Source: Amoebophrya sp. A120
Taxonomy: Eukaryota > Protista > Dinoflagellata
DNA length: 49,209 bases
Direction of reading: 5' to 3'
NCBI GenBank assembly: GCA_905178155.1
Contig: CAJINV010000006.1
Location: forward strand, 1 to 49,209
Part shown: piece after piece, positions 1,303-33,180 of the stretch
How positions within the stretch are numbered: position 1 is the first letter of the stretch
Layout: every line of letters starts with the position of its first letter
Position numbers and translations under genes: made by a program
The notes under the pieces: model-generated
The model's input: only the letters and a program-made list of their open reading frames with translations
Told to the model about the DNA's origin: nothing
Database searches by the model: none

Positions 1303-2180
1303 TTTTGCGTTTCTGTAGCGCGAAATGCGAGAAAATTTTTTGTCGTTGTTGCTGTGTTTCGAAAAAATTTGTTCTCTAATGAGCAAGAGGGTTGATGTAA
1401 GTAGGAAGCGAGTTACTTGATCGCTACAGAGAAGCTTTTGAGTTAGGCACTACAATAGCCATACTTTTTAGTTTTTAAGTGCGACCGCACCTTGGCAATT
1501 ATATAGATTTTCAAAAAATGGCGATAGTTCCGTTCTCTTTTCGAACAAAAAATTGACGGAAAAGTACCAACGTGCCTCTGAAAAAACACAGCGACAAGAA
1601 AACTGAAGCAAAGAAATAGTGGTGGAACGACTTGTAAGATTACGATTGATTTATGACGAACGATTTGGCTGAAGCATTTTGGAAGTCAAAAAAGAAACAA
1701 ACGTGCTCACGACTGTGCACATAATTTTCGCACTTCCCTGTGAAAATACGAAGACGCTGCGTCTGCACCTACGATAGAAGACTGAAACGACCTGTAAGCG
1801 CGATAAAAACTGACGAAGAGTTACTTGGTACTTACTTATGAGGTTGGGTACAGACGAAGGGAAGGGAAACGCGACGAAAAAAAGTTTCACGTTCTCCACC
1901 AATGTTGGAGCAACTAATTTCCACAATGGCAGCAAATTTTTTCGCGTGTTGATGTTTCCCGAAATGCTGTTGACATTTGTGTTGAAAATTCAAATTGTTT
2001 CTGAATTCCGCACGAGAGATTTCCTTTCTCTCTTTCGCACGAAATAGCAATATTTTTGTTCTTCTTCACAAGACTCGAGGTGGCAACACAGTCCTCGTTC
2101 CTTTGCGTTTGATTCGCTTCTTTCTCTTACATCAGCCCGCGCGAGAGGTTTCGGATGTTGTCTCAGTATTTAGCCCGATC

Positions 2181-5100
2181 CTAGTTCGCAGACGTCTGCG
2201 ACAGAACGAGATACCCCTTCCGCTGGTACTGCTGCCTGCTTAGGTTGCCGCCCCTGTCGGGGGTCGCAGGGAGCTTCACCTTTCCGGTCCAGAAGTCGCG
2301 CAGCCGTTTTAACCGGTCCTCGCCGTTGTGCTGTGCAAAGGCCAGGATGATAACGAAGAGGAAGTACTCGACGTTTCCCACCTCGCGGTACAGGGTTTCC
2401 GACTTCCGGCTGGCCTTTATCAAAGTACAGAAAACTACTCCAGCCTCACACCCGCTTGGAGCATCGAGGCGGTGTTCATGCGCATGCAGATGAAGCTTCT
2501 ATCGCGGTTCACACTCGCCAAAGAGAGCCTAGCATGCACATAGACTGCTTTGTTGAGATAGTTTCGCACCCTCGTGCCACATCTATCGCAATAAAGGCCG
2601 TGCTTCGTTCCTTGCTCCATAACAAAGGGTTTGGGAGTATGAGGCGGCACAGTTTTCCACTTTGATAAAAGGTTTGTCACGCTGAAGAACGCCGGTGTCG
2701 CATATGACGTCGAATGGGCGGGTGTCCTGTGCAAAAGCGTACCCATCGCTGCAAATCTGCAAACCGAGATTGTCTCCCATGTACCTTCACACGTCAGCCA
2801 TTTTCCACTCGTGTTTGGAATTTCGTCATTCTGCATGCATAGTTGCGCAGCTAATTAGGGACGCGACTGCGCGTTCTCGGCACGGGTGTGCTGCATATCC
2901 AAACTTGTCATGCGTGAGTCCTCTCAAAACTTGTTCTGTGAGTACATACCCAAACTTGTCATGCGGGTTTGTCCACCCGAAACAGATTTTCTACTTTGAC
3001 CATCGTGCAGGTACGTTTTTGCTCAGGATACACGGCCTTCTCGATGCTGCGATTTGTGCTGGACTGGAACTTCTTGACCGAGTTGACCTTTTTCAGGACC
3101 CTGTACACTTCGAGCATGTCATTTGCACGTTCTGGCGAGCCGAGGATGGTCGCTTTGGGAACACCGCACACGATCCGCACGGCGTCGACGAGCAGCTGTT
3201 CGAGACTTTTCCATCCGATTGGAATTTGTTCACCGGTCATGAGCATGAGCTTCGCGTCGCATCCGGTCAGGTGCGTTCCTGTTCGCACCGCGTAGACCTC
3301 GGCGTCGTCCGTCCTCGGCAGCCCGATGTTGTACTTCGTCGACCGCACCTGCCGGAGCTGTTTCAGGAGCATGTTGTGCAGCCTCTCCTTCTCGTCGATC
3401 GGCACGTCGATGACGACTGTAGTGACGGACTCATGCAGGGACGTCTGGGCTGTCAAGAGGAAAAGCGTCCCTACAATGCACACCCGAGTGAAGAAAAGCT
3501 GTACTCAGCATGCTATTGCAGTATCTTTGCGTAGTTGTAGTTCGAGAGCAAAATGCTGTTATTTCTAGTCGGTCTTCATCGCACACCGAATCTTCTGCAT
3601 GACAATCTACTGTCGCAGGACTTTTCGGACACATGTGGTCGCAGGATGCACACTGATTTCTTCTGTGTCGATTGTAGGGCATCTCGTTATTCATACTATT
3701 CTTGGTTTGTGCGCCAACATCCTGATTTTTTGCACGGAGGGGGGTTGAATAGTAAACGAAGCATGATCATGTTAAAAATGGCATTGAATTATTCGTCGCT
3801 GTAAATGAAGATTATAATTGCAAACACGACCCTACTTATACCAGATCCGCATTCGAATCTGGCGATGACCCAGGCACTATGGAAAGCAAAAAAGTACTTA
3901 CAGGTCAGGTGAATTGTGTCCAAAAGCTGTTTTCCTCTTCTTGCCACTTGCGCGGCTCATGCAAAGAGTCATGCAAGACATGCGCGGCTCATAGCAAGAG
4001 CCAAATTCAAGATCTGACACTGTACGCCTGCGTTTTGCTTATTGAGGAGCCCTTCAGTTGTACTTGCCGGCGGACGGAAAGAAGATGCTCCAACCTGTTA
4101 TACGATGCGTGGGAGGAGAAAATTATACGTTGTTTTGACCGTGGTTGGAGAAAAATGAGAACATCTGCGTCACGAAACCAATCACTCCATAACATCACAG
4201 AATTTCATTCTCCACAACATCGACAATATACCTGGTCCTCTTCGAGTTCAGCATCGGGGGAAAGCTGTGCTTTCGACTTGGTAGGGAAAATTTTTCTCCA
4301 ACCACGGATGCTGACATTTACTATTCTTTTCCCGGGAGCAGAATAAACTCTGTGCACACTACTATTTAACAAGTATGAATGGTCATGCAGCCTGACAAAA
4401 ATCGCGTCGTGCGTGGTCCGGTGTTTACTTAAACATGAGGCTGTGGTTGGATGCTTGATTTTCACTCTGATATCCGGTGGGGAGTCAGCGTCCAATCCGG
4501 TGCCGCTATGGAGTTAGCAGTGGTCAACAGCGTTTGATCTGACGCAAAGAAGTAGTGTACAGTTCCAGTGATGACCTCGAGGGAGGCACAAGACAGAAAT
4601 CAGAAAAAAAATAAGAGGTGGCTCGGGTGCTCTCTTTAGCGCGCTTTTGCGGTGGGAATCGCACGGGGGGGCGACAGAGGGTACTGCCATGTCAGGGACT
4701 ATGGGCAACTCACAACCAGCACCTCGCAGTCCCGACGTCACGCCGATCCCGTGGTGTGTCAAGAATGTCCACGATGCCAGTGGTGGTGTAGTTGTTTTTC
4801 CGTTTTGATGTACAGCATGTTCATCGCCTTTTCGAAATTGGCCGTGCGTCGGAGGAAGGCGTGTTCACCGGGTCGGAACATGGACGGCAGAAGCCCGCCT
4901 GCCACGCGGCTCCGAAGGCCAAGAACGACACAGGAATTATCGGATGCACATCTTGGTTTCGTCAATAAGTGCAGGAGCTCTCAGTTCGCTCAAGTAGATT
5001 TTCGAAATAAATTTAGTCTACGGCCGGGGGTGCAGCCCGGCACGCAGTACGGGCAACACGCCAAATTCTTGAGCCAATGTTGCTTGAGCCACGAAACGCC

Positions 5101-5293
5101 TGCAGCGGGGGTCTGACAAATTCTGGTAGGAACATGCAGGAGCTTTGTCATGCGGAGCAATGTGCGGTCTGTACGGCGCATCAACATGCAAGCTTCTTTG
5201 CATCAGAGTCGCAGCTGTTGCCTGCTGGGCAGCCGATTTTGTGTAGTATGGGACGCGGTTCTCGAGGTCAGTCTTCAGTTGCTTCAGCTGCAT
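2181..5293 (-). CDS. Probable multi-exon gene(s), not reconstructed
   Basis: Protein-like minus-strand fragments (2181-2423, 2959-3483, 4759-4965, 5018-5293) are separated by stretches rich in ttgtcatgc/gcatgaca (likely decayed elements). Confidence 0.35.
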
Positions 5294-5582
5294 GTTGGAC
5301 TTGGTACTCTCTGCTAGTTATCAGAGCAAAGCAGGAAGCCCGTCCTCGGGAAGATTTGACTCTGTGTTCCTAGTGCTACTCACAAATCACTTGCGCTGCA
5401 TGGAGTAGAAAAAGTTTATTAAAAGCTGGTCTTAGCAACTGTAGGCAGATAAGCCCTATGTTTTCAATAACTTTTTCGTTTCGCAATTAAGTCTTGCAGA
5501 ACAGAGACCCAGAGCATCGCATGACAAGTTCAAGTAAACGAAAAATGCTACGACCCTGACACGAGTGGAATTCGGGCGAAAT

Positions 5583-8500
5583 CTACTTCCTGCTCTTCCA
5601 TATGGGGCGCTTGAACGACGCCGGTCCAGTGGTCAGCCTCGGGGTCTGGTCTCCGCCCGTCACCTCGGCGGGGTCGTCTGCCGGCTTCTCCAGCGGTGGA
5701 AGTGTGAGGCCCGCGCTGTCGTCTTCCATTTTTGCGAGCTCCGCGGCGTTGAAGTAGGACACTTGGAGGCCGTTGCCCAGGGTGATGGTTTCCGCGTCGC
5801 ATCCTTCTGCGTCCAGGAGCCGCAGGATTTCCCTCCTCACCTTCAACGTGCAAACCGCGAGCAAGTCCGGGGGCATCGCTTGGAGCGATTCCACAGCGCA
5901 TCCTCAGCAAAAATGCCCCCACCCCAAAGCTGTCATGCAAATGCGCATTGACGCGAGCATTTGTAATGCGCATCTACATCTTCTACTCCTGTTTGCAGCA
6001 TTACAAATGCCAAAACACGATTAGAAATGCCTCCTATGGAGTCCATAAGGGGCATTTGCAATCGTGTTTTGGCATTTGTAATGCTGCAAAAAGGAGTGGA
6101 AGATGGCTTTCTCATGCGGTTACCCTTGCTAACCAGCACTACCCTGCAGGTGGAAACCTGTCATGCGCAACTGCCAAAACTTGGAGATTTGCTTTGCAGA
6201 TTCACCAACTTGGCTATAGGGTGGGGCCGTTTTTGCTCAAGATACTGTTGCACGCAGTGCCCCCCCGGACAATTCCACTGTCTCCGACGGAACCAGCACG
6301 GTGCTGTAAAATTGCCGGCTCTCGTAGAGATGACCCAGTGGCAGGACGTGACGGACGCGTTGCGCGTCTTGGACCGAAGCGGCCCCATCCATTCGGACCC
6401 CGAACGGGTTGGCCACTTTCTGCCCAATTGACTGGTAGTGGTCGTATTCTGAGAGCAGCTTTGTTACCCGGGCGTGTATGCATTGCAAATATCAATCTTG
6501 GTCTGGAACACTCTAATTTGTAATGCTAAGCGTGGATCCGATGCAAACAAATCTGTGTTGCATGATCACCAAAAGTTGTGAACTTTTAACCAAGTTGAGA
6601 GCAGACACTTTCTCATGCAGAACAGGCATGATACGGATCTCACAGCATCTGTCATGCTAGGTTCTGCATTCCAGAAGTCATGCGTCATGGAGAATCTGCA
6701 TGACAAGTCTTGCACTCTTCCAGACAAAGACATTTTTGCACTGGATATTGTGAAACGACGGGAGTTCGATTATCCAGGACTTCAGGGACTGCTGGATGGT
6801 ATATGGAATAATATTATCGAATGCAAATATGTCTGGGTCTGCAAGAATGCAACTTGTTTTGCTGCATTTGGATGGCAAAAAAATCTACATTGCATGAGCA
6901 GCAAAAGGAATCTTTTTGTTGCTACGCGGAAGGTGCATTTGTCATGCGGAATAGGCTTCAAGAAGCCCTCAAAAAATCTGTGGTGCTATCGCATGCATCA
7001 CACACATCATGCCTCGTGCAAAGCGTGCATGACAAGTCTTCCAATTTTCCAGACCCAGACATAATTGCATTTGATAAATACCAGGCACCGGCTGCGTCGT
7101 CGACTGGGGTGCTGTTTCGCTGACCGGCTTTGGAGAAGGGCTAGGGATTGTGTTGGTGACAAGTGGTGGTGGTCCCTTCGCTTCCATCTCGACGTAGTGG
7201 GACAACAGCTCGAGTTCGCTCTGGGCCCGCGTGGCGATGTCGATCAGTTTATCCTGAGTAGAAACGTCCCCACCCCATAGTCAAGTTCGTAAATCTGCAA
7301 CACAAATCTCGAAGTTTTGGGAGTTATGCATGACAAGGCTCCATCTGTAGTACTTTGTAGCAAGGGCAGCAGCATCACAAAGACGCCTGCTTATTCTGTT
7401 TACAGCATTACAAATCCGCCCAGAACACGACTACAACTTCCTCTCTCGCGGATGCGTATTACAGATTTTTGTGTAGATGCAAATCTGCATGACAACAACT
7501 ATGGGGTGGAGACTTTTTTACACAGGATACATTTTGTTGTGGAAGCGCGAACCGTAGTTGAAGTACTCCGTCGTGACTATCAAAAGGAAAAATCCCCCCA
7601 CCCCATACTCAAAGGGAGATTTGTATAGTATGATTTGTGATCACAAATCGCGTTGTCATGCTACAAGGTAAGAGATGCAGATTTCAGTGCTGGCTGGCAT
7701 GGGAAAGCTTTGCGTCTTCAGCATGACAGGAAGCAACTGGAAACAGGAAACAGCATGACAAATTTCCTGCAAACGAAGGAACAGCTGCGTCTTTTGGCCT
7801 TCTAGCAATACAAGTCGATTTGTGGTCACAAATCAGCATCACAAATTTCCTTTTTGATATGGGGAGGGGGGATTTTTCCTTTTGATAGTGACCTGGTTCG
7901 TGCTGAACATCGCGCTATCCAAAATGGTGTTCAACAGGTCGGTATGGATTGCAAAAGTGTCTGGTTCTGGAAGAATGCAACGTGTGATGCTATTTTTGGA
8001 ACCTAAAAAAATCTGTATTGCATGACCAGCAAGTACAGGCGTCCAGTTTTTGCGCTGCGGAGAGGGCATTTGTCATGCGGGATAGGCGTCATGATACCCG
8101 CAAAAAATCTGTGATGCTGGGGCATAGTACATCGCAGACATCACGGGCCGTGCAAAATGTGCATGACGAGCCTTGCAATCTTCCAGACCCAGACATATTT
8201 GCATTTGATAGGCGGTGAGTTCAATGTTCGGGTTATCGTGAGACAAGACGTCCCCGCGCCCCATAGATAAGATGGGAAATCTGCTAGAGAAATCGACAGG
8301 CTGTGGCTGTTGCGAATACAAATTTCAGGGTCGGAGTGTAGTTGTATTTCGCAAGTAGTATTCTAGCAGCATCACAGAGCGCAAATACCATGCTGATTCG
8401 AGCAACACAAATTATCTCAAAACACCACCAGAAAATGCTTCTCATGGGAACGAAAGATTTTACGCATGCAGAATTGCATTACAACTCTGGGTTGGGGACG

Positions 8501-10135
8501 TTTTGACACGGGATACGGGTTGCCGCAGTTGATCAAGCAGTCCCGGATGTAGTGTGTCGTGTTCTTATGAAAGTGCGCAACCCCTCCTCCCCCTCCTTTG
8601 TCATGCAAAGTACCAACTCCACGCCTTCCCTCTTGGCACTGTTTGCATGACAAATTTTGGCCGCCAAACTAGCACTAAAACCCTGCGCAAATTTGTCATG
8701 CAAAACTTGCACCCCAGCTGACGCTTGTGTTGCTTCTATTCATGCCCTATAAATGAGGGCGAGGGGGGGTTGTGCACTCTGATAGTTGTTCTCCACGGGT
8801 TCCATCTCTCGGACTATGCATTGCAAATATCGCTCGACGTCTGGAGAAGTGCAAGATTTGTCATGCTTCTATAACTGCAGAGTTTGTCGTGATGCGAGTC
8901 CCCGAGAAAGCTCTTGTCCTGACCATACAGAAAAACACATCGTCATGCAGAATGCGCAGCAGGTGCACTGGCCGTGCAAATTTTTCTCATGCTTGGCTGG
9001 TGATTATTACTGTCATTCTTTACAAGATAGCATTACAAAGTTCGTGGTCGAGAACAATATTTGCATTGCATACCCACCGGGACGCCTTCGGGTGCGAGGA
9101 TGGCTGCGACTTCCGCTAGATTTTCCAGTATCCCGTATCCTGAGTAAAAACGAGCCCACCACCCGATAATCAAGATGGGGATATATTTTTGGCAACACAA
9201 AAAATCCTGAAGTTCCGAGAGTCACGCATCACAAGTTCCACCTCTCTGTGCTGTAGTGCAGGATATCGACAACTACAGCCGCATCACAAAAACACCAGCT
9301 CATCCTGTTTACAGCATTACAAATGTCAAAACTCGGTTTGAAAAAATGCCTCGACTGGGATTTCGCATTACAAATGTTCCGTGTTAATTTTCAAATCCGC
9401 ATGATGAGAACGCTGGAGTGGGGACGTTTTGAGTCAGCATAGCCCGACCGAGACGTTGTACCCTTCTTCCCCACCGAGGAGTTGCGCCATGGTTGCCGGC
9501 GCCGCACTCCGGATCTCCTGCGACGGTTGGAGGGGCGCCCACAGATGCTGCAGCTTCTGCCCGGATTGCACGCATTCTGTTTCCAGCACCGCCAGTGACA
9601 CTTGGCCGCCCGCCGAAAAAAACATGTTGAGAGCGCCGCGGACTTGCACGTCGTATACGACGGCGTTGACTTTGACTCCCTCGGTTCTCGCGGGCTGTTC
9701 TGCACTATTGGGGGAGTGGTGTCTTCTCGCAGCGGCTTCTGCTTGTTTTTGGCGCAGAAGTTTCATCTTGTGCTCACTGTCATCTCTGTTGCCGTCGTAC
9801 GTGAGGTGGACGGGTTTCACTATCGTGTAGAAAAAAGTGTTTCACTGTATGCGATTCATTGTTGAAGTTTTGCATCAAGAGTTCGCTACGCATGACATGC
9901 AGTCCTCCTGAGGGAAAAGATCTTTCAAAACCTGATTTCCTCTTGCATGTGTTGTACAACTAGCAAGACAAATCCGTCTGTGTTGCATTCTTTGCGTCAC
10001 AAGCTCAATACAGGGAAACACTTTTTTCTTCCGATATTCAACGCAGGCGAAGGCGCCACGTTGGACTGGTTGTCAAACACGGTAACTTCACTTCTGCCGT
10101 CATCCGTGAGTGGGGACCTATGGACGCGGAGTGAG
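5583..10135 (-). CDS. Gene G1, unknown protein, at least 12 exons separated by 11 introners; 5' end unresolved
   Basis: Manual splice is open throughout: SLRVHRSPLTDDG..KPVHLTYDG..NVSVG|ILENLAEVAAILAPEGVPV|EMEPVE|NTTHYIRDCLINCGNP|NIELT|LLNTILDSAMFSTNQV|TTEYFNYGSRFHNK|IDIATRAQSELELL..|IPYTIQQSLKSWIIELPSF|HARVTKLLSEY..|VESLQAMPP..WKSRK*. Confidence 0.85.
5899..6244. mobile_element. Introner, B-like family
   Basis: catcctcagcaaaaatgcccccacccc ... ggggtggggccgtttttgctcaagata; degenerate TSD cagcg/ctgtt; removal keeps frame. Confidence 0.75.
6477..6747. mobile_element. Introner, family A
   Basis: tatgcattgcaaatat ... atttttgcactggata; TSD gcgtg/ttgtg. Confidence 0.85.
6815..7076. mobile_element. 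Introner, family A
   Basis: tatcgaatgcaaatatgtctgggtctg ... cagacccagacataattgcatttgata; TSD aatat/aatac. Confidence 0.9.
7250..7529. mobile_element. Introner, family B
   Basis: tatcctgagtagaaacgtccccacccc ... ggggtggagacttttttacacaggata; TSD cagtt/cattt. Confidence 0.9.
7578..7887. mobile_element. Introner, family C
   Basis: tatcaaaaggaaaaatcccc ... ggggatttttccttttgata; perfect TSD gtgac. Confidence 0.92.
7943..8210. mobile_element. Introner, family A
   Basis: Family A TIRs; TSD gtcgg/ggcgg. Confidence 0.9.
8234..8515. mobile_element. Introner, family B
   Basis: Family B TIRs; perfect TSD cgggt. Confidence 0.9.
8566..8784. mobile_element. Introner, family D
   Basis: tatgaaagtgcgcaacccc ... 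ggggttgtgcactctgata; TSD gttct/gttgt. Confidence 0.85.
8815..9072. mobile_element. Introner, diverged family A
   Basis: tatgcattgcaaatat ... atatttgcattgcata; TSD cggac/cccac. Confidence 0.8.
9136..9441. mobile_element. Introner, family B
   Basis: tatcctgagtaaaaacg ... ggggacgttttgagtcagcata; TSD tcccg/gcccg. Confidence 0.85.
9821..10036. mobile_element. Introner, family E
   Basis: tatcgtgtagaaaaaagtgtttcactg ... cagggaaacacttttttcttccgata; TSD ttcac/ttcaa. Confidence 0.88.
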
Positions 10136-11329
10136 TACCATGCAAGAGGACAAAAGAGCTGCAATTTTAGTGCGATTCTGGACCACGATGGAGACGATGC
10201 AAGACACAGAAGCCTGCCATGCGAAACTTTTGTCACACGCAGCATATTTATTTTACCTCATATTTTGATGTACTAAGCTGCGCACAACAAGTTTTTGTGA
10301 TGCAACTTCCTTTGGATGAAAAGAGCCTGCCTGGCTAGTGAGTCGCACCATTGCAGTTTTTTTGTCGGATAAATACACTGGCCGGTTTGTGGTGGGTGAG
10401 ATGCCCGTCTGCAGGAAGAACGCATCGCACAGAAAACCGCTAGCAAAGGGTGTTTGCAGATGTGCAGACAAATTTCGCTCTGGGCATGACAGGTTTGTTC
10501 TTGTGCTGGTTGTAGTATGCACGGCTGCTCTGGGGCGATGGCGATTACTATTTTCATGACAGAAGAACTTTCACAACACGTCCACCGCTGCGCTAGCATT
10601 TTTCTGTTCCATATTGCTTTTGGTGCTGGCCGGGCGCGTGCACCTGGAAAAAAGACATTATTTCACAGGTCTAAAAGAACGTCAAGCGATTTATTGGTGA
10701 TTTGAGGTTATTTACTCGTCCTGCAAGTGAGCTGTTGAAAACACGCGCAGTTGTGCTACAGAAAATTATCACAGAACAACAGGACTATGGCGAATAAATC
10801 CAGCACAATTATGGAAAGTCCTCATGATGCAATCGTGCAAGAATGAATCAAAACTGACAATAAGACGGTCCTGAGAGAAGATTTTGGACGAAAAAAAAAG
10901 TTCAAGGAGACGCAACAAAACCGAAGATGGAAGGTCTGGAGAGCAGCTGCAGCTGTCTCATGAAAAAAATGTTCACAGCAGACTTCTTTGAATATTGTCA
11001 CGGGTGTCTCAACGGATAGTGTCAACATCGGCAATGGATCAATGTCTTTTTTGGGCGTCTCGAGAACAGCAACATCACAATCAAGAACAGCCTCCTGCTT
11101 TTCAACGCAGACTACTGAAGAGTGTTCGCACGAACATACGAACAGGGAATAGTTTCTTTAGCGCACACAATTGTGAAACAAGTAGGTTCTTTCTCGCGTA
11201 CGAGGGTTTGCTTCGTCGGGTCTTTTTGCAAGACAGCTCTGAATATCTGAAGTTTCTTGGTTTTGTCTACCTCAGCAATTTTCAATTAGCCCCTGCAGCG
11301 AAGTCATCGGAACTACATCACGTCGCTGG

Positions 11330-11419
11330 TAAAAGTTCAGCATTTCATCTGTTAAAACAGTTCAGCAACTCTGTTAAAAGTTCAGCAGCTTTCTTAAAAG
11401 TTCAGCAACCCTGTTAAAA
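11330..11419 (+). repeat. Degenerate ~21-bp minisatellite
   Basis: (g)ttaaaagttcagca recurs about 4 times. Confidence 0.7.
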
Positions 11420-11649
11420 TTTTTTCACCACGTTTCAACCGATTAATTCGAAGTAAGAGCAGTGTTCTTTGAAACAACAAAAAGTAAAGAGTTTTATGTT
11501 CAGTGTAATAACGGGAAACAGCACGACACAGTGGACTCAAAGGAAGCTCTTGTTCTCACGTGCTTCGAGTTTAGTTAGGACTAAAGGTCATATACTTCAT
11601 CGGGTCGTAGTTTTCATAGAATCCCGCGGGCGTGTCTGGAATTTGGTAC

Positions 11650-13745
11650 TTAACGCACAGGTTTTATCAAATGCAAAAATGTCTGGGTCTGGAACATTCT
11701 AAACTTGTGACACTGTCTCTGGATTCCGAAAAAATTTGTATTGCATGACCAGCAAGAGGACTCCAGTTTGTGCCATGCGGAGAGGGTTCCCATGCTGTAG
11801 AGGTATTGCAAAGCGCTGTAAAAATCTGTGATGCTACGGCACGCATCACAGACATCATGGGTCATGGAAAATATGCATGACAAATCTAGAAATCTTACAG
11901 ACCCAGACATTTTTGCAATTGATAGGTTTGAATCTCGCACCCGCGTTCGGTCCATTCATGGTCCTTATCCACCGCAAATCTGTCTGGGCTTGGAACCAAA
12001 ATGCAAGCTTGCAATGCGAACGCTGGGTCACATGAAAATTTGTGTTGCAGCGTGAGTGTGCCGCCTACGAATTGCCCACTTACTGCTGCACAAAAAGCGA
12101 ACCCTCCCCCGTATTGAAGATGCATGATGGGGTAGGAGAAAAACACGGATAACCGGCTTTGCATCATCCAAATAAAGAGGCATGACAAATACGCAAGATC
12201 TACTTCCCGACCCAGACATTTTTGCGTTGGTTATTCTTCTTGGCGTCCTGCAGAGCCTTGCAGCCGACCTCCAGCCTATGCATTGCAAATATGTCTGGGT
12301 CTGGAGAAATGCCAGGTTTGTCATGCATAGTTTCCATGACCGATGACTTTCATGATGCAAGCCCTAGCATCACAGACTCTGCGAAGGCTTTCTGATGCTT
12401 TTACCGCATGAGAAATGCCCTCTCCGGGTAGCAAATACGGATTTTATCGCACATGATCTAAAGGCACCATGACAAGTCGCATCCTTCCAGACGCAGACAT
12501 ATTTGTAGTGGATATAACCATCGCGCGAACAATACCTGCTCTCTATCCTTTGCAAAAACCCCTCCCCCCCCCAACTTTATCATCCAAAGATGCGGGCCCA
12601 AGACGTTTCGCATGCGTAACCCCATGAGGGAATTTGTATATGGTAATTTGAAATTTGTCATGCTACCAGCAGGATAAATTGATCGATCTGTGATACGGCC
12701 GCACCAGCTGACTTTAGGTACTTGCAGCACTGCGATGGCCCGATTGTGCTATGCTAACATCTCCTGTTCCTGTAGTACACAGATAGTGGGGCGGAGGCGT
12801 TCTTCCTCAAGATACTCTTTCTCAGTGTAGTGCTGGTTCGGAGTAGTGTGGCGGTCGCGAAAGGCGGCGTCGCCTGTATGGAAAAATAAAAATGTATACG
12901 GAAAGAAAGTGATAAGCGAGAAAATAAATGATTGCATTTGTCATTCATCAACAGCTCGCCGCTGAGCATAGGTTTATCATGCCTACCGGCTCTATGAGAA
13001 GAACGTCATCTTTGGTGGAACTCATCAACGGAATAATCAAAACTTACAACCCAAGTGCGTTTTCGCCTCCGGCACCGCTGAATCCATCGTTTTGACCACG
13101 TCTTCCAGGAGGCGACAGGACTTCTTGTCTTTTTTTCCCACGTATTCGAACAGATCCCGAATGTACTGTGTTGTTTGGGTGCAAGAGAGGTCTCTTGTTT
13201 CAGAAAAAAATCATACGAAGTAGTAAGCAGAGCTGGAGACGGGGCGAAGCCCTGGTGAAGAAACAAAATAAAGTCCGAACTGGTCGTCGCACCAGGGGCC
13301 CGAAATGTTTTCTTTACCTTCTCCCAGAGCCCGTGCGCACTCACCGGCTCTTCGTGCATCGGAAACATTGTCAACAGCCCTTTGACCATGTACTTGTCGT
13401 CTCCCGACATGCCTGTTTTTTTGGTTTTATCTGATAATAACCAAGTACACCTGCGTTCTCGGGCTCTGTGACAAAGTGACACTATCTTTCAGTTTCGACG
13501 AATTGTACTTATACAATGAGGAAAGGAAATCAGATTACGCATATTATACCGACTTTGATATAACGCTCTGCTGGCCCAGCGCGGGGGCACATGCCGACTC
13601 GGTTCTGCGTATGGTGGTGGGTGTAGCAGAAGTAGGTCAGGATTTCAAGCATCAACTCAGGTCCTCTGTTCTCCGGGATTGTTTGCGTGTAAAGCAAGTC
13701 GGGGTCCAACCCACAGCAGACAGCGAACAAAAGATCGCAAAGCAT
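11650..13745 (-). CDS. Gene P1, unknown protein, paralog of P2; 3' end uncertain
   Basis: Starts MLCDLLFAVCC..PELM..MCPRAG..IKVGI. Later exons splice to GDAAFRDRHTTPNQHYTEKE|QVLFARWL|EVGCKALQDAK. Confidence 0.65.
11665..11924. mobile_element. Introner, family A
   Basis: Family A TIRs; perfect TSD ggttt. Confidence 0.92.
11966..12233. mobile_element. Introner, family A
   Basis: tatccaccgcaaa ... tttgcgttggtta; degenerate TSD gtcct/ttctt. Confidence 0.8.
12277..12514. mobile_element. Introner, family A (opposite orientation to 11665)
   Basis: Family A TIRs; TSD cagcc/taacc. Confidence 0.85.
12544..12814. mobile_element. Introner, diverged family B
   Basis: tatcctttgcaaaaaccc ... ggcgttcttcctcaagata; TSD ctctc/ctctt; removal keeps frame. 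Confidence 0.75.
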
Positions 13746-14134: not shown

Positions 14135-14362
14135 ACACGAGCGACATGCCGACGACTCAAAAACCCGTAGTCCTCTCTTATGCTTCTCGACCCTCTCTGA
14201 TGCTCTTGCAAACGACCAGCAGAACAACGTGCCTTGGAGCTAGACAACTGTTGTGCTCTGCCAGCTGATTTCGCAGAATTTCAAGTAAGGCCTAAAGCTT
14301 CTTTCAAATAAATCAACATTAGTGCCGTTTGAAGCGGTCGGAGAAGTAAGCGAGTTCTTCTA

Positions 14363-14623
14363 TTATTGCTTGTCCATCTCAGCCCGCCGCGCAGCCTCCA
14401 TTTCTTGCCACTGCATCTCCCGTTCTTCATCCCAGGATTGGCCTTGGTCCACCGAAGGGGAACCCACTTCCACGGACGGCGACCTGGCTACGACAGGAGG
14501 AAAGCGCCGTCGGGGCTGTAGGTTCCAGCGCCGTGCCAGGTACTCGTCCTCCGACGGCAAGCCACGCAGTTTGTCCAGCAGGTCGTCCAACCTGTCCCGC
14601 AAACACTGGAACAGCAGGTACAT
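14363..14623 (-). CDS. 86-aa small ORF, copy 1
   Basis: MYLLFQCLRDRLDDLLDKLRG..AEMDKQ*; conserved from start to stop with 19711-19971. Confidence 0.6.
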   Translation of the reverse strand: MYLLFQCLRDRLDDLLDKLRGLPSEDEYLARRWNLQPRRRFPPVVARSPSVEVGSPSVDQGQSWDEEREMQWQEMEAARRAEMDKQ

Positions 14624-15151
14624 GGGCGTGGTGCTATAGACTGGCAGTTGCTTGTTGGTTGTTGTACTTCGATAGATAGAAACAAAAATATCTGTGTGTC
14701 GGCCCCGACGGCACACTCCGTTTAGCTAGAACAATACACTGTGGAAGGACAAGCGAAAATGTTCATTCAGTGGCACACGAAGATCGCTCATTCACTCGGC
14801 TCCAGTGCGACAGTCATGCCGACATCAGAAATTCAGCGTACAAGGAACAACGAAGCCTACCACTGGCGATGCGACCTGATCTTTGGTTCATTCCCTGTAC
14901 ACGTCGAGCCCTCAAACGAATTTCTCTCCTGCTGTCCTCTCTCACAGTACGAAATCAAAATGCAGACGTTGCTTTTTGCGTCGAACACGCGCTGCGCTTT
15001 CACGCTCAACAACGAAGATTCATTTCCAATAAACGGCGCGACTTGGTTTTGTAGCCCACGACGCTTCCAGAGATACCGATCCGCAACTTTTTGGTCTAGT
15101 AGAGGTCTTTTTGCAAGACAAATATCACCCGAGAGGTCGAGGGGCTTGTTC

Positions 15152-19062: not shown

Positions 19063-19710
19063 GATGTTTTTGATGCAATACAATTGTTTACAACGAGCTG
19101 TGCTTCACAGGATCACGGACAAAAATATAGTTCTCTTCAATAGATGTAGTTATTGAGCTCTTAGGAATAAAGTTCTGAACGCACGGGTGGAAAGAGGACG
19201 TCTCTAGTAACTGGTAATGGATTCTTGTTGAAAGCGCTTCTCTACTGGTAGTTGCGGATGGAAAAGTCTACTTACAACTGGATGGAAATGTAGAAGACGA
19301 AAAGCGCGATTTTGGTCGTCGCAGCGAGCGCTCACCGATATCACTCAAATTCCTAGCGAGTCGAGGAGGCACGATTTAGATTAAAGTTTGTCTTCCCGGT
19401 CGTATTTCTCTGAAGCGACTGAAGCCGAGACGAATTTGAAATTCCCGATTGTTATACAATTCTTGTAGAGATGACCCGAGCGAGGCCTTTTGCTGCTCCG
19501 GGCTGCAGCAAGGCAAGTGCGCAGAGCTGGCAGCTTCTTTGGCAGAATTTCAAAAGGCAAAAAATTTTCAAAGTGAGTCGCAGCGGCGTTTCCCGTACTC
19601 TGAAAGAAAACGAGGCGAAAAAATGGAGCTCTTGAAGATGTCTTGGGGGGTTTGTAGAAAATGAAAAAATTCATGCTGTTGCAAGCGATCCGAGAAAGCT
19701 TATCATCATC

Positions 19711-19971
19711 CTATTGCCTGTCCATCTCAGCTCGTCGCGCAGCCTCCATTTCTTGCCACTGCATCTCCCGTTCTTCATCCCAGGATTGACCTTGGTCCAC
19801 CGAAGGGGAATCTACTTCCACGGACGGCGACCTGGCTACGACACGAGGAAAGCGCCGTCGGGGCTGTAGGTTCCAGCGCCGTGCCAGGTACTCGTCCTCA
19901 GACGGCAAGCCACGTAGTTTGTCTAGCAGGTCGTCCAGCTTGTCCCGCAAACACTGGAACAGCAGGTACAT
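19711..19971 (-). CDS. 86-aa small ORF, copy 2
   Basis: Differs from 14363-14623 at 4 amino acids, plus several synonymous changes. Confidence 0.6.
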   Translation of the reverse strand: MYLLFQCLRDKLDDLLDKLRGLPSEDEYLARRWNLQPRRRFPRVVARSPSVEVDSPSVDQGQSWDEEREMQWQEMEAARRAEMDRQ

Positions 19972-20824
19972 CTTCGTGTTGTTAACTACCGGCACGCGGC
20001 CTTTGTGACGCGAACTGTTTGTCAGAGAAAAAAAAACGACTTTGAGTTTGTTTTTGGTCGTCCACGAACAGCGCTTGTTCTATGCGGATCTACACTACGT
20101 CAGCGATTTGCAACAGCGAATTATAGATGGGTCAACGACCCTTTCACTCCGAGCGGGGTTTCTGGCTTGTTTCACTCCAACGAAAAAGCGACTCTTTGAT
20201 GCGCAGAAAGCGATAGAACAGGAACTGTTTCAAAGAAGTGGCGCTGCCTGCTTTTCAACAAGCGGGAGGCGTTCACTTTCACGGAAAGGAAAAAATTTCA
20301 TCACAAGCCAAAAATACTGGGAAGAGAAACAACAATCCGCGACAAAGATGTTGTTGGAACAATGAAACGCGCCGTCTCTTCAGCAGAAGTCTCTAGACAG
20401 AGCAGGGGAAACAAACGCTGCAGTAGACCTCAAATTCCTCAAGCGTCGCCGCAGAGAAGTCCGCTGGACGCACCGGCTTGTTGCAATAGCCACTGTAGCT
20501 GGACGGATGCGCGCAGGAGCCATCCCGACGAGATTCCCAACCTTGGGGGCACGCGCTGAAGTTGGGTTGGCAGGGTTGTATGGAGTGGAGAAATGTATTG
20601 CGTCTTTTTCTAGGACAATTTTGATTGTGTTTTTCTTCTGCCGGATCTGCTAGGTTTTACACGTTATCTCTTTACACACCTTCACATCACAGCTGCAAGA
20701 AGCGCATGACAGATTGCGTTCCGCGGAGATGCAATATTTTCTCTTTGCCTAGATTGGTCGCACTGCGCGTTGGCTCTTCCCGAGGCGACGTGTGCCTCTG
20801 CGGCTTTGGCAACGCTCGTCACGG

Positions 20825-21091
20825 TATGCAGTGCAAATACCTCTGGGTCCTCAGGGAAGAAGCTGGTGTCAGTCATGCAGCTTTTGCATAATTACCATCA
20901 CAGCCTGGTGTTCTTGGTACTTACCATGTACGCTGAAGCAGGACAAGTTTCGCAAGGCCTCTCACCAGTGCCCATCCTTTATGAAAAACCCCGTGGACGA
21001 AAGAAGACCACACGACTTTTGAAGCACACTGACGAGCTAGCATCACAAACATGCATCTTTCCAGGCCCAGACATATCATTTAGAATGGATA
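20825..21091. mobile_element. Introner, degenerate family A
   Basis: tatgcagtgcaaatacctctgggtcc ... ccaggcccagacatatc..ggata; TSD not recognisable. Confidence 0.65.
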
Positions 21092-21851
21092 TGCGATGCT
21101 TGCCATCTTGGTGAGGGAAAGTTTCCCGGAGACTGCACGGAGGAAGGAAGCTGCGCCCGCACTCGCACCTGCGACCGGGTAGGCTCCAAGCTTGGTCGGC
21201 GAGCTCACCAGGGCCGCTTTCACCGCGTTGTGCAACTCCCGTTGCTCCGGTGTCTCTCCCACGCTTGCCGATTTGTCAAAGGCCTGGAATATCAGAAGGA
21301 AAAACTCAAGCACTTGCCTGCAATTTGTGATGCTGATGATCCAGTGCCAGCACATTGAAGCACTGGCAGATGCCGCCTCTGGAGCTGAGGCTTTGTTTGT
21401 ATCAAGGTTCATTCTGCTGATTCTTAAAAAAGCATGACGACATCAAGTAGCTGCGCAACTTTGCATTTTTCTCTCTCATATCCGCGCCGGCAATCAGGTC
21501 CCGCTCAATGTCCTTGATGCGGTCGTCGCTCGCAGCGTCACCGGCCGATCCCGGGAGAGAAGCCTCCTGCGGGGGAGCCCCGGCTGGCCCCGCGCCGCCC
21601 ATCAGCGAGCTGATCATGCCTGCCGCGCGATCTGCGGAGGTGGTAGCGACGGATCCGGTTTCCGAGTAGGCACCGGCGCCGGCTTGACCCATGGAGGGAT
21701 CGGAGGCCGCATCCGGCACCCCAGCCGACGTGCCGCTACCGCCCGGCCGGTGCGCGCCTCCGCCTCCGATCACACTGCCTGGCGCGTCCTTGCGGAGTTT
21801 CAACGACAGCGTGGTGGCCACCAGGCAGAAGTGGAAAATGCGCGAAGACAT
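21092..21851 (-). CDS. Putative secreted Gly/Ala-rich protein (multi-exon, 3' end unresolved)
   Basis: Signal-peptide-like N-terminus MSSRIFHFCLVATTLSLKLRK, then a low-complexity region, DDRIKDIERDL.., and a second exon AFDKSASVGETPEQRELHNAVKAAL.. Confidence 0.6.
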
Positions 21852-22455: not shown

Positions 22456-22559
22456 GTCACATGGACGCTACGAGGTTTGCATGACATGCAGGGCGGACGC
22501 TAGCAACTTCCTGCCATTGTTGACGACGCGACAAAAAAAAGCAAAAAGACGGAACCGCG

Positions 22560-24045
22560 CAAACCGGCGCGGCCGGTTTTGCGGCTCCGCAAGTACATAG
22601 ACCCCTCACTGGAACAGGCACGGACATCCGGAGCCCCGAAAGATTCAACGCGCGCCGGGACTGACGAAGGCAGGCGCTGCCATCATTGACCACGCGGGCC
22701 AAAACAGAAAGCAGACGGCGACAAGCGCCGGCCGTTTGGTTCTTGTGCGCAAATCGGCGTGGCCGGTTTTGCGGCTCCACAAATACATACACCCCTCACC
22801 CGAAAAAGCATGGACATCCGGCGCCCCGAAAGATTCAACGCGCGCCGGGACTGACGAAGGCAGGCGCTGCCATCATTGACCACGCGGGCCAAAACAGAAA
22901 ACAGACGGCGACAAGCGCCGGCCGTTTGGTTCTTGTGCGCAAATCGGCGTGGCCGGTTTTGCGGCTCCACAAATACATACACCCCTCACCCGAAAAAGCA
23001 TGGACATCCGGCGCCCCGAAAGATTCAACGCGCGCCGGGACTGACGAAGGCAGGCGCTGCCATCATTGACCACGCGGGCCAAAACAGAAAACAGACGGCG
23101 ACAAGCGCCGGCCGTTTGGTTCTTGTGCGCAAATCGGCGTGGCCGGTTTTGCGGCTCCACAAATACATACACCCCTCACCCGAAAAAGCATGGACATCCG
23201 GCGCCCCGAAAGATTCAACGCGCGCCGGGACTGACGAAGGCAGGCGCTGCCATCATTGACCACGCGGGCCAAAACAGAAAACAGACGGCGACAAGCGCCG
23301 GCCGTTTGGTTCTTGTGCGCAAATCGGCGTGGCCGGTTTTGCGGCTCCACAAATACATACACCCCTCACCCGAAAAAGCATGGACATCCGGCGCCCCGAA
23401 AGATTCAACGCGCGCCGGGACTGACGAAGGCAGGCGCTGCCATCATTGACCACGCGGGCCAAAACAGAAAACAGACGGCGACAAGCGCCGGCCGTTTGGT
23501 TCTTGTGCGCAAATCGGCGTGGCCGGTTTTGCGGCTCCACAAATACATACACCCCTCACCCGAAAAAGCATGGACATCCGGCGCCCCGAAAGATTCAACG
23601 CGCGCCGGGACTGACGAAGGCAGGCGCTGCCATCATTGACCACGCGGGCCAAAACAGAAAACAGACGGCGACAAGCGCCGGCCGTTTGGTTCTTGTGCGC
23701 AAATCGGCGTGGCCGGTTTTGCGGCTCCACAAATACATACACCCCTCACCCGAAAAAGCATGGACATCCGGCGCCCCGAAAGATTCAACGCGCGCCGGGA
23801 CTGACGAAGGCAGGCGCTGCCATCATTGACCACACGGGCCAAAACAGAAAGCAGATGGCGACAAGCGCCGGCCGTTTGGTTCTTGTGCGCAAATCGGCGC
23901 GGCCGGGTTTGCGGCTCCGCAAGTACATAGACCCCTCACCCGAAAAAGCACGGACATCCGGCGCCCCGGAAGATTGAACGCGCGCAGGGACTGACGAAGG
24001 CAGGCGCTGCCATCATTGACCACGCGGGCCAAAAAAGAAAAGATA
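22560..24045 (+). repeat. 190-bp GC-rich satellite, ~7.8 copies
   Basis: cattgaccac recurs every 190 bp (22684-24014). Central copies are identical and edge copies diverged. Confidence 0.97.
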
Positions 24046-25206
24046 CGGAGACGGGGCGCCATCCTTCATCCAGGTCGCTAACCTAGTTCCATCTAGGTGC
24101 CGGGCGGGTGGGGTTTCCGTCCTTCATCTAGGTCGGTGACCTAGTTCCAACGAGGTCCCCGGGCCTCGTTCCAACTAGGCCCCAGGCAAATGGCATTTCC
24201 ATCCCCCACCCAGGTCCCGGACCCCTTTCCAGCTACTTAAGTCCCAGGCCTTCCCAAAAAATCCAGGCAACCACCTCCACCCCTGTAGGCGCCACCCCCC
24301 AGGAGCACGGAAACACATGGGGCGGGGCTGCTCCTGGTAGGAAAATCTAGGCCCCTCCCGGATCTCGTCCGGGAGGCCGTGAACCGGCCCGGGGGCAAAG
24401 CTTGTCGGATCGCAGGGCGACCGCGCTTCGACTTGGTCCGTGGGGGGCTGGGTTGACGATCCCGGGAATTTGTCTTGATGCGGTGACCGCGGACGACCAC
24501 GCTTCGACCAAAAGCTTCATCGGGAAACACAAGTGGCTTTGGGGCAGATTCTATAGAATTATGTCGCAACAAGTAGGAACATATACGTGAAACGATAAAT
24601 TTGTCACGAGCAGAAAACTATACATGTTCATCGCCGTCGTGTGCAGAGGATCTTCGTAAATAAATAAAACAGGTGTTGTGCGTTGTGATCAGGAAAAGAT
24701 AGGATCTTTGTCGTGGAAAAGAAGATCTTCGTCGCGCTTCCTGAACACGCAATACGGAGTGCATACTTTTACTGTGCTATAGTCCTTGCACCAGAACGGG
24801 CCAGCACTTCAACCTTTGCTGGGGCCTGTTTACTACTACGCTTTCCTGGTAATTCTTGTCCTTGCATCCAGCGGCGCAGCCTGCTGCGCCAGTTTTTCAA
24901 AAATTTCAATCTCATACCAGCACTTCCAGTTTCACTTCCGCGCAGCGTGGCAAATGGCTATTAGTGTCCCGGATCGAAAGGAAAGCATGCGTGTTCGTAC
25001 GATATACAAGACAAAAAAATTCATAGGGTGAACTGCTTTTCGGCTTCAAAATTTCATGTGAGACGCAGAGACGTGCAAGAGCTTTTTTTTGTCAGTACGA
25101 CCGTGTTTCTCGTCGTTTTGTCAATCTCGTTTTTTGCATTCTGCAAAATTGTTCGTCCTGTTCTATTGCGGAGCGGTAGCGTCGTCGTCGTGCTGAGCCT
25201 ACGTAT

Positions 25207-31200: not shown

Positions 31201-31703
31201 TGTTCTTGCGCATGTTCTTCCAGGCCTGCCGAGGACGCCGCGATGGCCGTTTGCACGTCATGTTCAGCTGGAGCTACGCCACCGGTTTGCACGTAGTAGT
31301 CGCCGCGCGGAATGTATCACGAGAAAAATTATAAAGTATTACAGTTTCCCACATCGTCTATGCAGGCCCAGTATGACAGACAACCGTTGTCATGCCAGAA
31401 ATGCTTTTGAGCCTCGTTTCATCAAGTTTTCCCTTTGTAATCTTTGCATTGTAAGTTTTCTCTTTCATCATGCGGAGAAAATTTGTGTTGCTTTTTTGAC
31501 AGCAAATGTGCTGCAACTGTAACACTTTCTTCGTGGGATAGAATGGAAACGCGGTCGCCGGGTGCGGCGCGGTCCAGCAGGGTCTGGATTTCCTCGAGCG
31601 TGTAGCGCAGAGGACGGACGTATTTCAGATTCTGTTCGCGGACTTTTAGCAGCGGGTTGCAGTTTTCCTGCTTCCGTAGCACGCACTGCTGCATGTGGTG
31701 CAT
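25207..31703 (-). CDS. Parallel beta-helix (pectin lyase-like fold) protein with low-complexity insertions and Cys-rich tail; at least 15 exons, 5' end unresolved
   Basis: Spliced LEEIQTLLDRAAPGDRVSI|PRGDY is the typical beta-helix N-cap. Then KPVVLVG..LEIRNLRV..VTIRG, ILFEDCYVKGGTDGLLLA|TSSTTL|LRRVTIEETSGRGIV|ICGG..VFLEDSAVLDCGTGGV, ending CVSGCIETCCPCCFPGDQSVT*. Junctions near 26.2-26.8 kb and 28.6-28.9 kb are uncertain. Confidence 0.75.
25279..25535. mobile_element. Introner, family A
   Basis: Family A TIRs; perfect TSD gcgac. Confidence 0.92.
25601..25846. mobile_element. Introner, family A
   Basis: Family A TIRs; perfect TSD gcggg. Confidence 0.9.
25912..26151. mobile_element. Introner, family B
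   Basis: Family B TIRs; TSD aacag/accat. Confidence 0.82.
26189..26457. mobile_element. Introner, family A variant
   Basis: tatcaaaggcaaatgcgtctgg ... ccagacgcattcgcattgcata; perfect TSD ccacg. Confidence 0.88.
26494..26786. mobile_element. Introner, family F
   Basis: tatccatcagaaaagtacac ... gtgtacttttttgtgggata; no recognisable TSD. Confidence 0.72.
26952..27212. mobile_element. Introner, family A
   Basis: Near-perfect ~30-bp TIR; perfect TSD tgacg. Confidence 0.93.
27264..27587. mobile_element. Introner, family C
   Basis: Family C TIRs; perfect TSD caggg. Confidence 0.9.
27611..27891. mobile_element. Introner, family A
   Basis: gatgcattgcaaatat ... atatttgcagtggata; perfect TSD cgcga. 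Confidence 0.88.
28382..28590. mobile_element. Introner, E-like family
   Basis: tatgcaagaaaaaaactgtgt ... acacaggttttttcttggata; TSD ttgtg/tgctg. Confidence 0.78.
29505..29784. mobile_element. Introner, family B
   Basis: Family B TIRs; perfect TSD tcgga. Confidence 0.92.
29861..30177. mobile_element. Introner, family C
   Basis: Family C TIRs; TSD ggtcg/gttcg. Confidence 0.9.
30230..30489. mobile_element. Introner, family A
   Basis: Family A TIRs; perfect TSD aattc. Confidence 0.93.
30545..30822. mobile_element. Introner, family B (opposite orientation to 7250)
   Basis: Family B TIRs; TSD gtagt/gatgt. Confidence 0.88.
31315..31540. mobile_element. Introner, E-like family
   Basis: tatcacgagaaa ... 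tttcttcgtgggata; perfect TSD gaatg. Confidence 0.88.
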
Positions 31704-33039: not shown

Positions 33040-33170
33040 GGCCGCGCCAGGGTGCGGAAACGGGCGTTGGCCGGACCCTTTTAAGGGAAACGGCGCGGAC
33101 CGCGCCGTTTCCCTTGAAGGATCCCAAAACCGACCAAGCAGCCGACCACGCCAGGGTGCGGAAACGTGCG
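33040..33170 (-). repeat. Inverted copy of the 104-bp palindrome-bearing repeat
   Basis: Reverse complement of the 482-748 unit; palindrome at 33083-33115. Confidence 0.9.
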
Positions 33171-33180
33171 GAGACGGGGG

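Follow-up and report, generated by a model that had tools for sequence, protein, structure and literature searches.

Non-canonical introns derived from introner elements have been described in Amoebophrya sp. A120, a marine parasite of algae, by Farhat et al. 2021 (PMC7789003). In the passages of that paper used here, the introner inverted repeat measures 8-20 nt and starts with TAT, followed by about 7 bases and then at least three A, and the A120 splice sites are called variable. These passages state that no transposase was found in A120; those of Gozashti et al. 2025 (PMC12130899) present transposase candidates and describe tens of introner introns within single A120 genes, as we found here. 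The window, meaning the whole 49,209-nt stretch of DNA that was analyzed, codes for proteins of Amoebophrya sp. A120 (three exons match at 100%), and these exact protein matches identify the organism as the same. Its insertions share with the A120 introners a TAT-start inverted repeat with seven looser bases and then an A run, direct repeats of 3-5 nt, a length of about 250 nt, the absence of GT-AG and a grouping into families. They are the published non-canonical introns, a real but known class, and since class, organism and intron-crowded genes were already in print, the finding of a preliminary description of this DNA is not new.

What we add is a fixed cut register, termed 1+4, with T+2 and A+3 invariant and A-7 nearly so. 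The S23 legend of PMC7789003 gives a range of 1-5 nt, as against the single 1+4 offset with unchanged T+2 and A+3 seen here, and the passages of PMC12130899 do not treat the cut register. The rule was not found in the literature searched, which took in PMC7789003 without Figs 3, S19 and S23; it may be partly known already, as Table S4 of that paper hints at T+2 (nine of the nine commonest A120 patterns have T second and a free 3' end).

Other systems resemble this locus in part, as far as the passages used describe them. Euglenid nonconventional introns (PMC11282704) likewise have end-joining inverted repeats, junction repeats and no GT-AG, and the offsets at which they pair (+4 to +6 with -8 to -6) are fixed, as is the case here; however, the stem here starts at +2 and -5, and the CAG/CTG pairing and pyrimidine/purine junctions are absent. 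Introns of Giardia, Trichomonas and Spironucleus (PMC6679479) share a relaxed first donor base and internal pairing, the Giardia donor being VTATGTT and its branch-to-3'-site distance being fixed, but they keep a 3' AG, absent here, and a CTRAC-type branch motif, and unlike the present introns they are few and not transposon-like. The introner-like elements of Polarella and Symbiodinium (bioRxiv 10.1101/2020.10.14.339549) are small inverted-repeat transposons, as here, whose target duplication makes removal seamless; they require G-H and AG, supplied by the element or the target site, whereas the A120 elements take nothing from the target site.

Extent of the gene and evidence for its splicing

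The preliminary description had given the gene the limits 5583-10135, with a stop at 5583. Neither is right, as the RNA-run contigs also splice out 5319-5602, 10139-10371 and 10423-10613 and continue to 1969, which makes the TAG at 5583 intronic. The gene has 20 element-derived and two GT-AG introns, 22 in all; below, the eleven elements within 5583-10135 are numbered 1 to 11 by rising coordinate.

1969..10774 (-): whole transcribed gene; 23 exons, 22 introns, 2,818-nt spliced RNA, the length of the X2 contig
10656..10658 (-): ATG, inferred start, first codon of an 829-codon ORF
10419..10614 (-): element intron (10423-10613), outside 5583-10135; unique register; X2 piece ends at 10615
10135..10372 (-): element intron (10139-10371), its element outside 5583-10135; record spacing 160 to 208
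9817..10037 (-): element intron (11, 9821-10036); pieces 10037 and 9815 adjoin at record 304/305
9132..9442 (-): element intron (10, 9136-9441); X1 and X2 pieces end at 9443, and length accounting
8811..9073 (-): element intron, 263 nt (9, 8815-9072); X2/X3 length accounting, joint not displayed
8562..8785 (-): element intron (8, 8566-8784); length accounting and P0001, joint not displayed
8230..8516 (-): element intron (7, 8234-8515); joint 7943>8516 with 12 letters between
8212..8229 (-): micro-exon, 18 nt; in X2 and X3 bases 8217-8228 stand between the two sides of the joint, residues in P0001
7939..8211 (-): element intron (6, 7943-8210); RNA-run joint, register via P0001
7574..7888 (-): element intron (5, 7578-7887); joint 7572>7888, slide 5 possible
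7246..7530 (-): element intron (4, 7250-7529); joint 7244>7530, slide 2 possible
6811..7077 (-): element intron (3, 6815-7076); joint 6809>7077, slide 4 possible
6473..6748 (-): element intron (2, 6477-6747); unique register; joint 6472>6749, no slide, and X1 ends at 6472
5895..6245 (-): element intron (1, 5899-6244); joint 5892>6244, slide 2 possible
5583..5585 (-): TAG formerly named as the stop, within intron 5315-5603; joint 5314>5604 in X2 and X3
5315..5603 (-): element intron (5319-5602); unique register; joint 5314>5604
4503..5249 (-): non-canonical intron, 747 nt, ends pair poorly; unique register; joint 4502>5250
4273..4473 (-): element intron with decayed 3' arm; joint 4271>4473, slide 1 possible
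4095..4231 (-): GT-AG intron, likewise matching the pattern (GTATAT...TATAACAG); RNA-run joint
3874..4042 (-): element intron with shortened 5' arm; unique register; joint 3873>4043
3722..3841 (-): GT-AG intron, begins GTATAA; RNA-run joint
3447..3696 (-): element intron (3451-3695); unique register; joint 3446>3697
2719..3031 (-): element intron (2723-3030); unique register; joint 2718>3032
2414..2668 (-): element intron (2418-2667), flanking repeat 0/5; unique register; joint 2413>2669
2181..2183 (-): TAG, true stop; C-terminus the same as in P0001

None of the runs matching the gene is on record as RNA; the RNA status of X1-X4 was guessed by a tool, and we treated them as RNA on the grounds that the two GT-AG introns are missing from X2 and X3. 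X2 and X3 come from one sample, spliced contigs of the gene occur in two samples, and contigs drop rare variants. As seen in X2, the contig is exactly as long as the mRNA built by removing each element plus 5 nt, and all its listed pieces agree with that mRNA, micro-exon included, when 1-nt slides are allowed, so that the junctions first proposed at element + 5 nt are upheld. Fifteen joints are shown in X2 and X3, two of them being GT-AG introns. A gene running from 5604 directly to 3873 was ruled out by the RNA-run joints. Unspliced pieces of the 747-nt intron were also present in the RNA runs, and a search of this intron for nested elements gave no good internal partner arm. Run X7 resembled noisy unspliced DNA.

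The public protein P0001 is identical to the gene product over the last 623 of its 686 residues and contains the junction peptide MFSTNQVTTEYF, which was predicted earlier and is also present in the rule-built ORF. Public proteins are the organism's own RNA-based annotation and are not independent of such data. At junction 8811-9073 the P0001 model differs by 1 nt, needing an intron of 264 nt instead of 263 nt, and the first 206 residues of the public model appear to have been lost through a 1-nt slip. No Pfam family was matched by six exons or by P0001, and the gene protein found only itself among 1.84 billion representatives. Its atlas hits (0.76-0.78, TM at most 0.25) were under the lead level, and its single-sequence fold (pLDDT 36.5) was too poor for a fold search.

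Transposon traits of the elements and the reading frame

All 11 elements within 5583-10135 have TAT...ATA inverted ends, and they make up 66% of that span, in keeping with the two-thirds estimated before. Across a set of 43 elements, TAT is found at the 5' arm in 40, and arm positions 11-15 carry A in 33-37. The five families named earlier are obtained at a 30-bit blastn cut-off, at which families reach 13 members among the 43 elements; the count rises to 7 at 40-60 bits and 9 at 100, and nine of the gene's 20 elements are singletons within the set. Related elements occur in both orientations, their copies being 66-77% alike, and DNA depth over the elements is very high. The 5-nt flanking repeats, described as TSDs, are present but imperfect, just 2 of these 11 elements matching at 5/5; among the 43, 15 match at 5/5 and 24 in all at 4-5/5, the rest being decayed, down to 0/5 in four. 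An element-free paralogous segment is shorter by exactly 278 (273+5) and 222 (217+5) nt. The elements show the MITE-type traits of terminal inverted repeats, fixed-length target duplication and no coding capacity.

As first reported, removal of element + 5 nt leaves a stop-free minus-strand frame down to the TAG at 5583-5585, and such a frame is indeed unlikely by chance, as shuffling the exonic bases 20,000 times never left any of the 6 frames open, and only 1,152 out of 177,147 combinations of phases (0.65%) contain no stop. The 23-nt interval 8211-8233, with 18 nt net, was also confirmed as a micro-exon, and the similar one at 27588-27610 was found in public protein P0002; the 7 nt at 34753-34759 are a further candidate exon. 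Nevertheless, the frame argument is insufficient, because an open frame limits the removed length only modulo 3. All 6 registers of element + 5 nt give an open frame, removal of element + 2, + 8 or + 11 nt leaves 511-544 codons open in nearly all registers, and a 503-codon frame stays open after a 1-nt shift at element 9821; as proof of single-base precision the open frame was therefore rejected. Nucleotide-precise removal is supported instead by the RNA-run contigs, P0001 and the element-free paralogue. The preliminary description missed the 22 introns, the intronic stop, the single fixed cut register and the published class.

The 1+4 cut register

Eight RNA junctions can be read in one register only, and in all eight the first intron base lies 1 nt ahead of the inverted repeat and the last one 4 nt beyond it; of their elements, only 2418, 6477 and 10423 had been placed before the RNA was seen. 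These eight belong to 13 RNA-read element junctions, the other five of which include 1+4 among their registers. The chance of such agreement is 1.7e-7, or 1.8e-5 on the 10 junctions with clear arms. In a later test on public proteins, 1+4 was allowed at every one of the 23 P0002 junctions that could be solved (1.6e-5), two of its 25 junctions being left out for want of a single-intron solution, and at 3 of 3 in P0004. The three genes examined all lie on the minus strand.

Across 46 introns, +2 is T and +3 is A in all 46, and -7 is A in 45. None ends in AG and 12 begin with GT, so the GT(GC)-AG ends of U2-type introns are lacking; no allowed register gives GT-AG at any of the 23 P0002 junctions. 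The 5' consensus is N-T-A-T, and the 3' end consists of A-7 within ATA, followed by four free bases (ATA-NNNN); the junction bases are free as well. Positions -5 and -6 vary more than A-7 (40 and 41 versus 45 of 46), -8 and -9 vary as well, in contrast to a U2-binding motif, and the mirror of A-7, T at +4, is kept in 42 of 46. The mirror TA of the 3' arm was lost in 10 introns and the 5' TA in none (sign test p=0.002; 8 versus 0, p=0.008, without four doubtful introns); for gene 2 by itself this asymmetry does not reach significance (p=0.125). Same-base tests were weak (A+3 versus A-5, p=0.026; T+2 versus T-6, p=0.056). In ordinary spliceosomes +1 and -1 touch one another; here no covariation was found between +1 and -1 (p=0.23) or between +1 and -1 to -4. 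Many elements have very stable predicted end-to-end stems (z down to -17), and in well-paired elements A-7 falls within the predicted stem, whereas the RNA-fixed introns 3451, 3878, 4507 and 5319 have nearly zero predicted end pairing in the exact register. Both GT-AG introns of the gene likewise begin with GTAT.

Proposed splicing mechanism and its alternatives

Overall, we favor, with a probability of about 0.58, the reading that the insertions are A120 introner elements removed as non-canonical introns, at 1+4 wherever the cut is readable, likely by an altered major spliceosome. Removal takes place from RNA, in the length of element + 5 nt and in the 1+4 register; the cut position is likely fixed because the altered spliceosome reads a short hidden signal. 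The elements would have inserted as small DNA transposons duplicating 5 nt. The TAT(G/C) of the 5' arm may be the remnant of a GUAUG-like donor in which G+1 alone is relaxed, and the 3' site would be placed at a fixed distance from A-7, a putative branch point, so that AG would not be needed. The hairpin may aid end joining in young elements, base-for-base pairing being presumably unnecessary. A symmetric element could supply both signals either way round with no contribution from the target site, which would explain how dozens could gather in a single gene harmlessly. According to passages of PMC7789003, A120 has retained U2, U4, U5 and U6 and almost the full set of spliceosome proteins, with no U1 found. 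The adenosine at -7 (45 of 46) is a candidate branch point only, and its conservation, close to that of the mirror T at +4, could also reflect pairing or ancestry.

An unlikely alternative is a spliceosome-independent nuclease and ligase, of the kind proposed for euglenid nonconventional introns, that would cut at fixed distances of 1 nt (5' side) and 4 nt (3' side) from the terminal hairpin. The absence of GT-AG at the 23 P0002 junctions, the four free last bases and the stability of the stems all fit such a system, as do the lack of a detected U1 in A120 in the passages of PMC7789003 and the release of euglenid introns as full-length circles with no lariats described in those of PMC11282704. 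However, the cuts are exact even at introns without predicted terminal pairing, the 5' TA is invariant though its pairing partner varies, and the donor-like N-T-A-T is common to the gene's GT-AG introns.

Somewhat more doubtful is that the spliceosome reads N-U-A at the 5' side while the hairpin foot sets the 3' site, with the branch elsewhere and A-7 only a part of the inverted repeat. In favor of this, predicted folds show A-7 paired, its context is not U2-like and its +4 mirror is almost equally conserved; yet A-7 is kept above -5 and -6, unpaired ends included.

Ciliate-type excision of the elements from DNA in some nuclei or stages, with RNA copying the edited template, is very improbable. 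The TA-ended inverted repeats and short direct repeats do resemble ciliate elements, but at depth 43-50 the listed DNA contigs of X5 run through the elements without splicing (for example, 8185-9328 and 9303-11688), though contigs would not show rare joined forms, no element + 5 junction was seen among the best 15 of 361 joints, the flanking repeats are often unequal (0/5 in 4 of 43), and the 1+4 offset tracks the transcript, not element orientation. That the gene is dead, its old frame restored by hand removal of recent insertions, might be suggested by its lack of outside relatives and Pfam matches, but two samples contain spliced contigs, which refute it. The elements are moreover old while the exons carry 833 stop-free codons, and for 21 of the 22 introns retention makes the ORF shorter.

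The splicing mode of A120 introners is called an open question in the passages of PMC7789003. A fixed 1+4 register with T+2, A+3 and A-7 makes it directly testable through the branch point, the lariat and the three bases, and the 1+4 rule offers a simple means to correct A120 gene models. A further proposal, tentative and somewhat short of even odds, is that an A120 spliceosome without need of G+1 or a 3' AG uses one code, N/UA at the donor plus a branch A lying exactly 7 nt from the acceptor, with the symmetric transposon end supplying both signals whichever way round it lies. If true, any exon insertion would be a clean intron at once, the tens of thousands of diverse-looking A120 splice sites would follow one rule, and the A25 motif TTA+RR would be the same N-T-A code reached via another element.

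Removal of the elements from gene 1 RNA

The preliminary description had placed 11 elements in 5583-10135, and scans for inverted ends recovered all of them. They carry 5' TAT (one CAT) and 3' ATA, are 216-346 nt long, and are flanked by 5-nt direct repeats with 2 to 5 of 5 bases identical. The proposed share of about two-thirds was measured at 66%, and the division into five families was reproduced at 30 bits but not at stricter cut-offs (7 to 9). As had been reported, removal of each element plus 5 nt left a minus-strand frame without a stop until TAG at 5583. Such openness is unlikely by chance, since none of 20,000 exon base shuffles was open in any frame; 0.65% of 177,147 phase combinations across the junctions were open. 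The frame nevertheless does not demonstrate single-base precision, because removal of +2, +8 or +11 also gave long open frames. With +5 it was open in all six registers, and a 1-nt offset still left a 503-codon open frame.

Ten sequencing runs matched the window, none recorded as RNA, and six were aligned. Runs X2 and X3 represent one sample and X1 another; X2 and X3 are taken as RNA runs, because two of the listed joints are GT-AG introns. One 2,818-nt contig of X2 covers 10774 down to 1969, and 15 of 22 joints were listed, each common to X2 and X3. X1 pieces end at 9443, 6472 and 7077-7244. An mRNA built from 14 single listed joints, with the element + 5 rule for the other 8 introns, measures exactly 2,818 nt, and, with 1-nt slides allowed for, its record positions coincide with those of the pieces listed. 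The elements are removed at the RNA level, each with 5 nt. Gene 1 has 23 exons and 22 introns (71% intron), with an ORF of 829 codons from ATG 10658 to TAG 2183 (-). The TAG at 5583, formerly read as the end of the gene, lies inside intron 5315-5603. The suggested 18-nt micro-exon (within the 23 nt of 8211-8233) is real, its core bases 8217-8228 being 12 letters within RNA joint 7943 -> 8516; a second one proposed at 27588-27610 belongs to another public A120 protein, P0002.

Among the pieces listed, the 747-nt intron 4503-5249, whose ends are poorly paired, was the single intron with unspliced pieces in X1, X2 and X3 (depth 2.5-4.2), a weak hint of slower splicing or DNA carry-over. Within intron 5315-5603, the high-copy segment 5416-5498 reached a depth of ~700-770 in X2 and in the DNA-like run X5. 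Two C>T differences occur there, and other copies of that element family are the probable source.

The public protein of gene 1 (P0001, 686 aa) is identical to the ORF over its last 623 residues, and therefore the register at 7939 and 6473 is fixed the same way. Its first 63 residues follow another frame, which requires a 264-nt intron at 8811 instead of 263 nt. We favour 263 nt from length and depth accounting, the joint lying outside those listed: in X2, 240 nt separate 9443 and 7244, and the X3 bin depth of 1.67 is consistent with 70 nt. The longer form may be a real minor 1-nt splice variant. Family, sequence and structure searches returned no family, relative or usable fold. Its gene is expressed and the product is an orphan, which agrees with the remark in PMC7789003 that non-canonical introns favour poorly conserved genes.

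Register and sequence of the intron ends

Among 13 RNA-read element junctions, eight permit a single register, and in all eight the intron begins one base ahead of the inverted repeat and runs four bases past it in transcript sense (1+4); the registers allowed at the other five include 1+4. Only elements 2418, 6477 and 10423 of the eight had been placed before RNA was examined, and the rule was therefore tested on two other genes, listed here with further features.

25210-37287 (-): second intron-crowded gene, P0002 (1,083 aa), with a RING finger at the N terminus; its element introns number at least 23, and the 27588-27610 micro-exon belongs to it
34753-34759 and 32882-32893 (-): likely P0002 micro-exons of 7 nt and 12 nt, chosen from 290 and 33 two-intron solutions
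20396-21851 (-): gene of public protein P0004, precomputed PF09717, three element introns
22557-24186, 33157-34186 and 378-489: tandem arrays, units of 190 nt and ~94-98 nt

A single intron solves 23 of 25 P0002 junctions; 1+4 is allowed at all 23 and forced at two (chance 1.6e-5), and GT-AG is not on offer at any of them. All three P0004 junctions permit 1+4 and exclude offsets 2-5. These tests are independent of the rule but not of RNA mapping, because the proteins come from the strain's RNA-based annotation. Element 2418 is cut exactly with a direct repeat matching at 0/5 bases, so the repeat is unnecessary for the cut. An exonic duplicate with two elements (46690-47343) and without them (48242-48395) represents a natural empty site; the length differences, 273+5 and 217+5 nt, are those a 5-nt target duplication would predict.

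The evidence for the register and for an asymmetry of the arms comes from 46 introns in three genes, all on the minus strand, and from contigs rather than reads. T stands at +2 in 46/46, A at +3 in 46/46 and A at -7 in 45/46; 12 begin with GT and none ends in AG. Position +1 takes any base (C 13, G 12, A 11, T 7; n=43), and the last four positions are equally unconstrained (n=43), giving an N-T-A consensus. Related elements occur in both orientations, and at insertion neither arm differs from the other. Even so, decay of the terminal TA affects ten 3' arms and no 5' arm (p=0.002), or 8 versus 0 without four doubtful introns; gene by gene the asymmetry gives p=0.03 (gene 1) and p=0.125 (gene 2), and comparing the same base between arms gives weaker results (p=0.026 and 0.056). 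Table S4 of Farhat et al. (PMC7789003), as far as its commonest patterns go, has T second with mixed 3' ends in 9/9 for A120, which fits a +2 T with a free 3' end, and TT starts in 9/9 for A25. The text of that paper describes no clear signature and variable sites, in contrast to the fixed register found here.

Other observations in the window

The P0002 micro-exons were chosen by requiring TA at +2/+3; the 7-nt candidate is also compatible with the 3' pattern. The 552-nt intron 32058-32609 of the P0002 model comprises a complete element (32327-32608) and 265 nt more, and may be two introns flanking a skipped or missed exon. Array 33157-34186 lies inside a probable 1,547-nt GT-AG intron of P0002, and array 22557-24186 shares 112 nt with 378-489. 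An in-frame ATG at 21851 lies 53 codons upstream of the Met with which the public P0004 model begins; the longer start is covered by the paralogue P0003. A near-identical 2.2-2.4-kb tandem duplication at 38814-44316, around an N gap (39524-40166), may be an assembly artefact; one element copy in it has 3 extra end bases, with TAT retained in transcript sense. Element-free paralogous segments 14306-14636 and 19659-19984 (295/323 bases alike) lie over a small minus-strand ORF. A GT-AG intron at 12874-13047 (-) has a loose end in X1, and its 3' end, CCATACAG, resembles an element end with three trailing bases, not four.

Candidate mechanisms and relation to known introners

With a probability of about 0.58, we infer an altered major spliceosome that would read N-U-A-U as a GUAU-like donor and set the acceptor by distance from A-7. 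Both GT-AG introns of gene 1 begin GTAT, U1 is reported as lacking in the A120 spliceosome (PMC7789003), and Giardia (PMC6679479) sets a precedent, combining a relaxed first donor base with a constant spacing between branch and acceptor. Against this reading stand the missing terminal AG in all 46 introns, the failure to find +1/-1 covariation, and the pairing of A-7 in a predicted stem, without U2-like context. A spliceosome-independent hairpin ruler, as summarized for euglenids in a review (PMC11282704), is a doubtful alternative; at four introns with exact cuts in RNA, the predicted pairing of the ends in register is close to zero. Less probable still is a spliceosome with its branch point elsewhere. 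Excision at the DNA level is very improbable, contigs listed for X5 crossing the elements unspliced, and a dead gene even more so.

Three exons are identical (100%) to proteins named Amoebophrya sp. A120, and the insertions are of a class known for that genome. Element class and intron crowding are already published: Farhat et al. 2021 (PMC7789003) describe A120 introner elements whose inverted repeat opens with TAT, followed by seven looser positions and a stretch of A, with 3-5-nt direct repeats, and put non-canonical introns at >60% of the total; Gozashti et al. 2025 (PMC12130899) describe single A120 genes with tens of introner introns. For the fixed register and arm asymmetry we found no prior account in the open-access literature searched, which included the text of Farhat et al. 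Together, these two features make the mechanism of A120 splicing testable.
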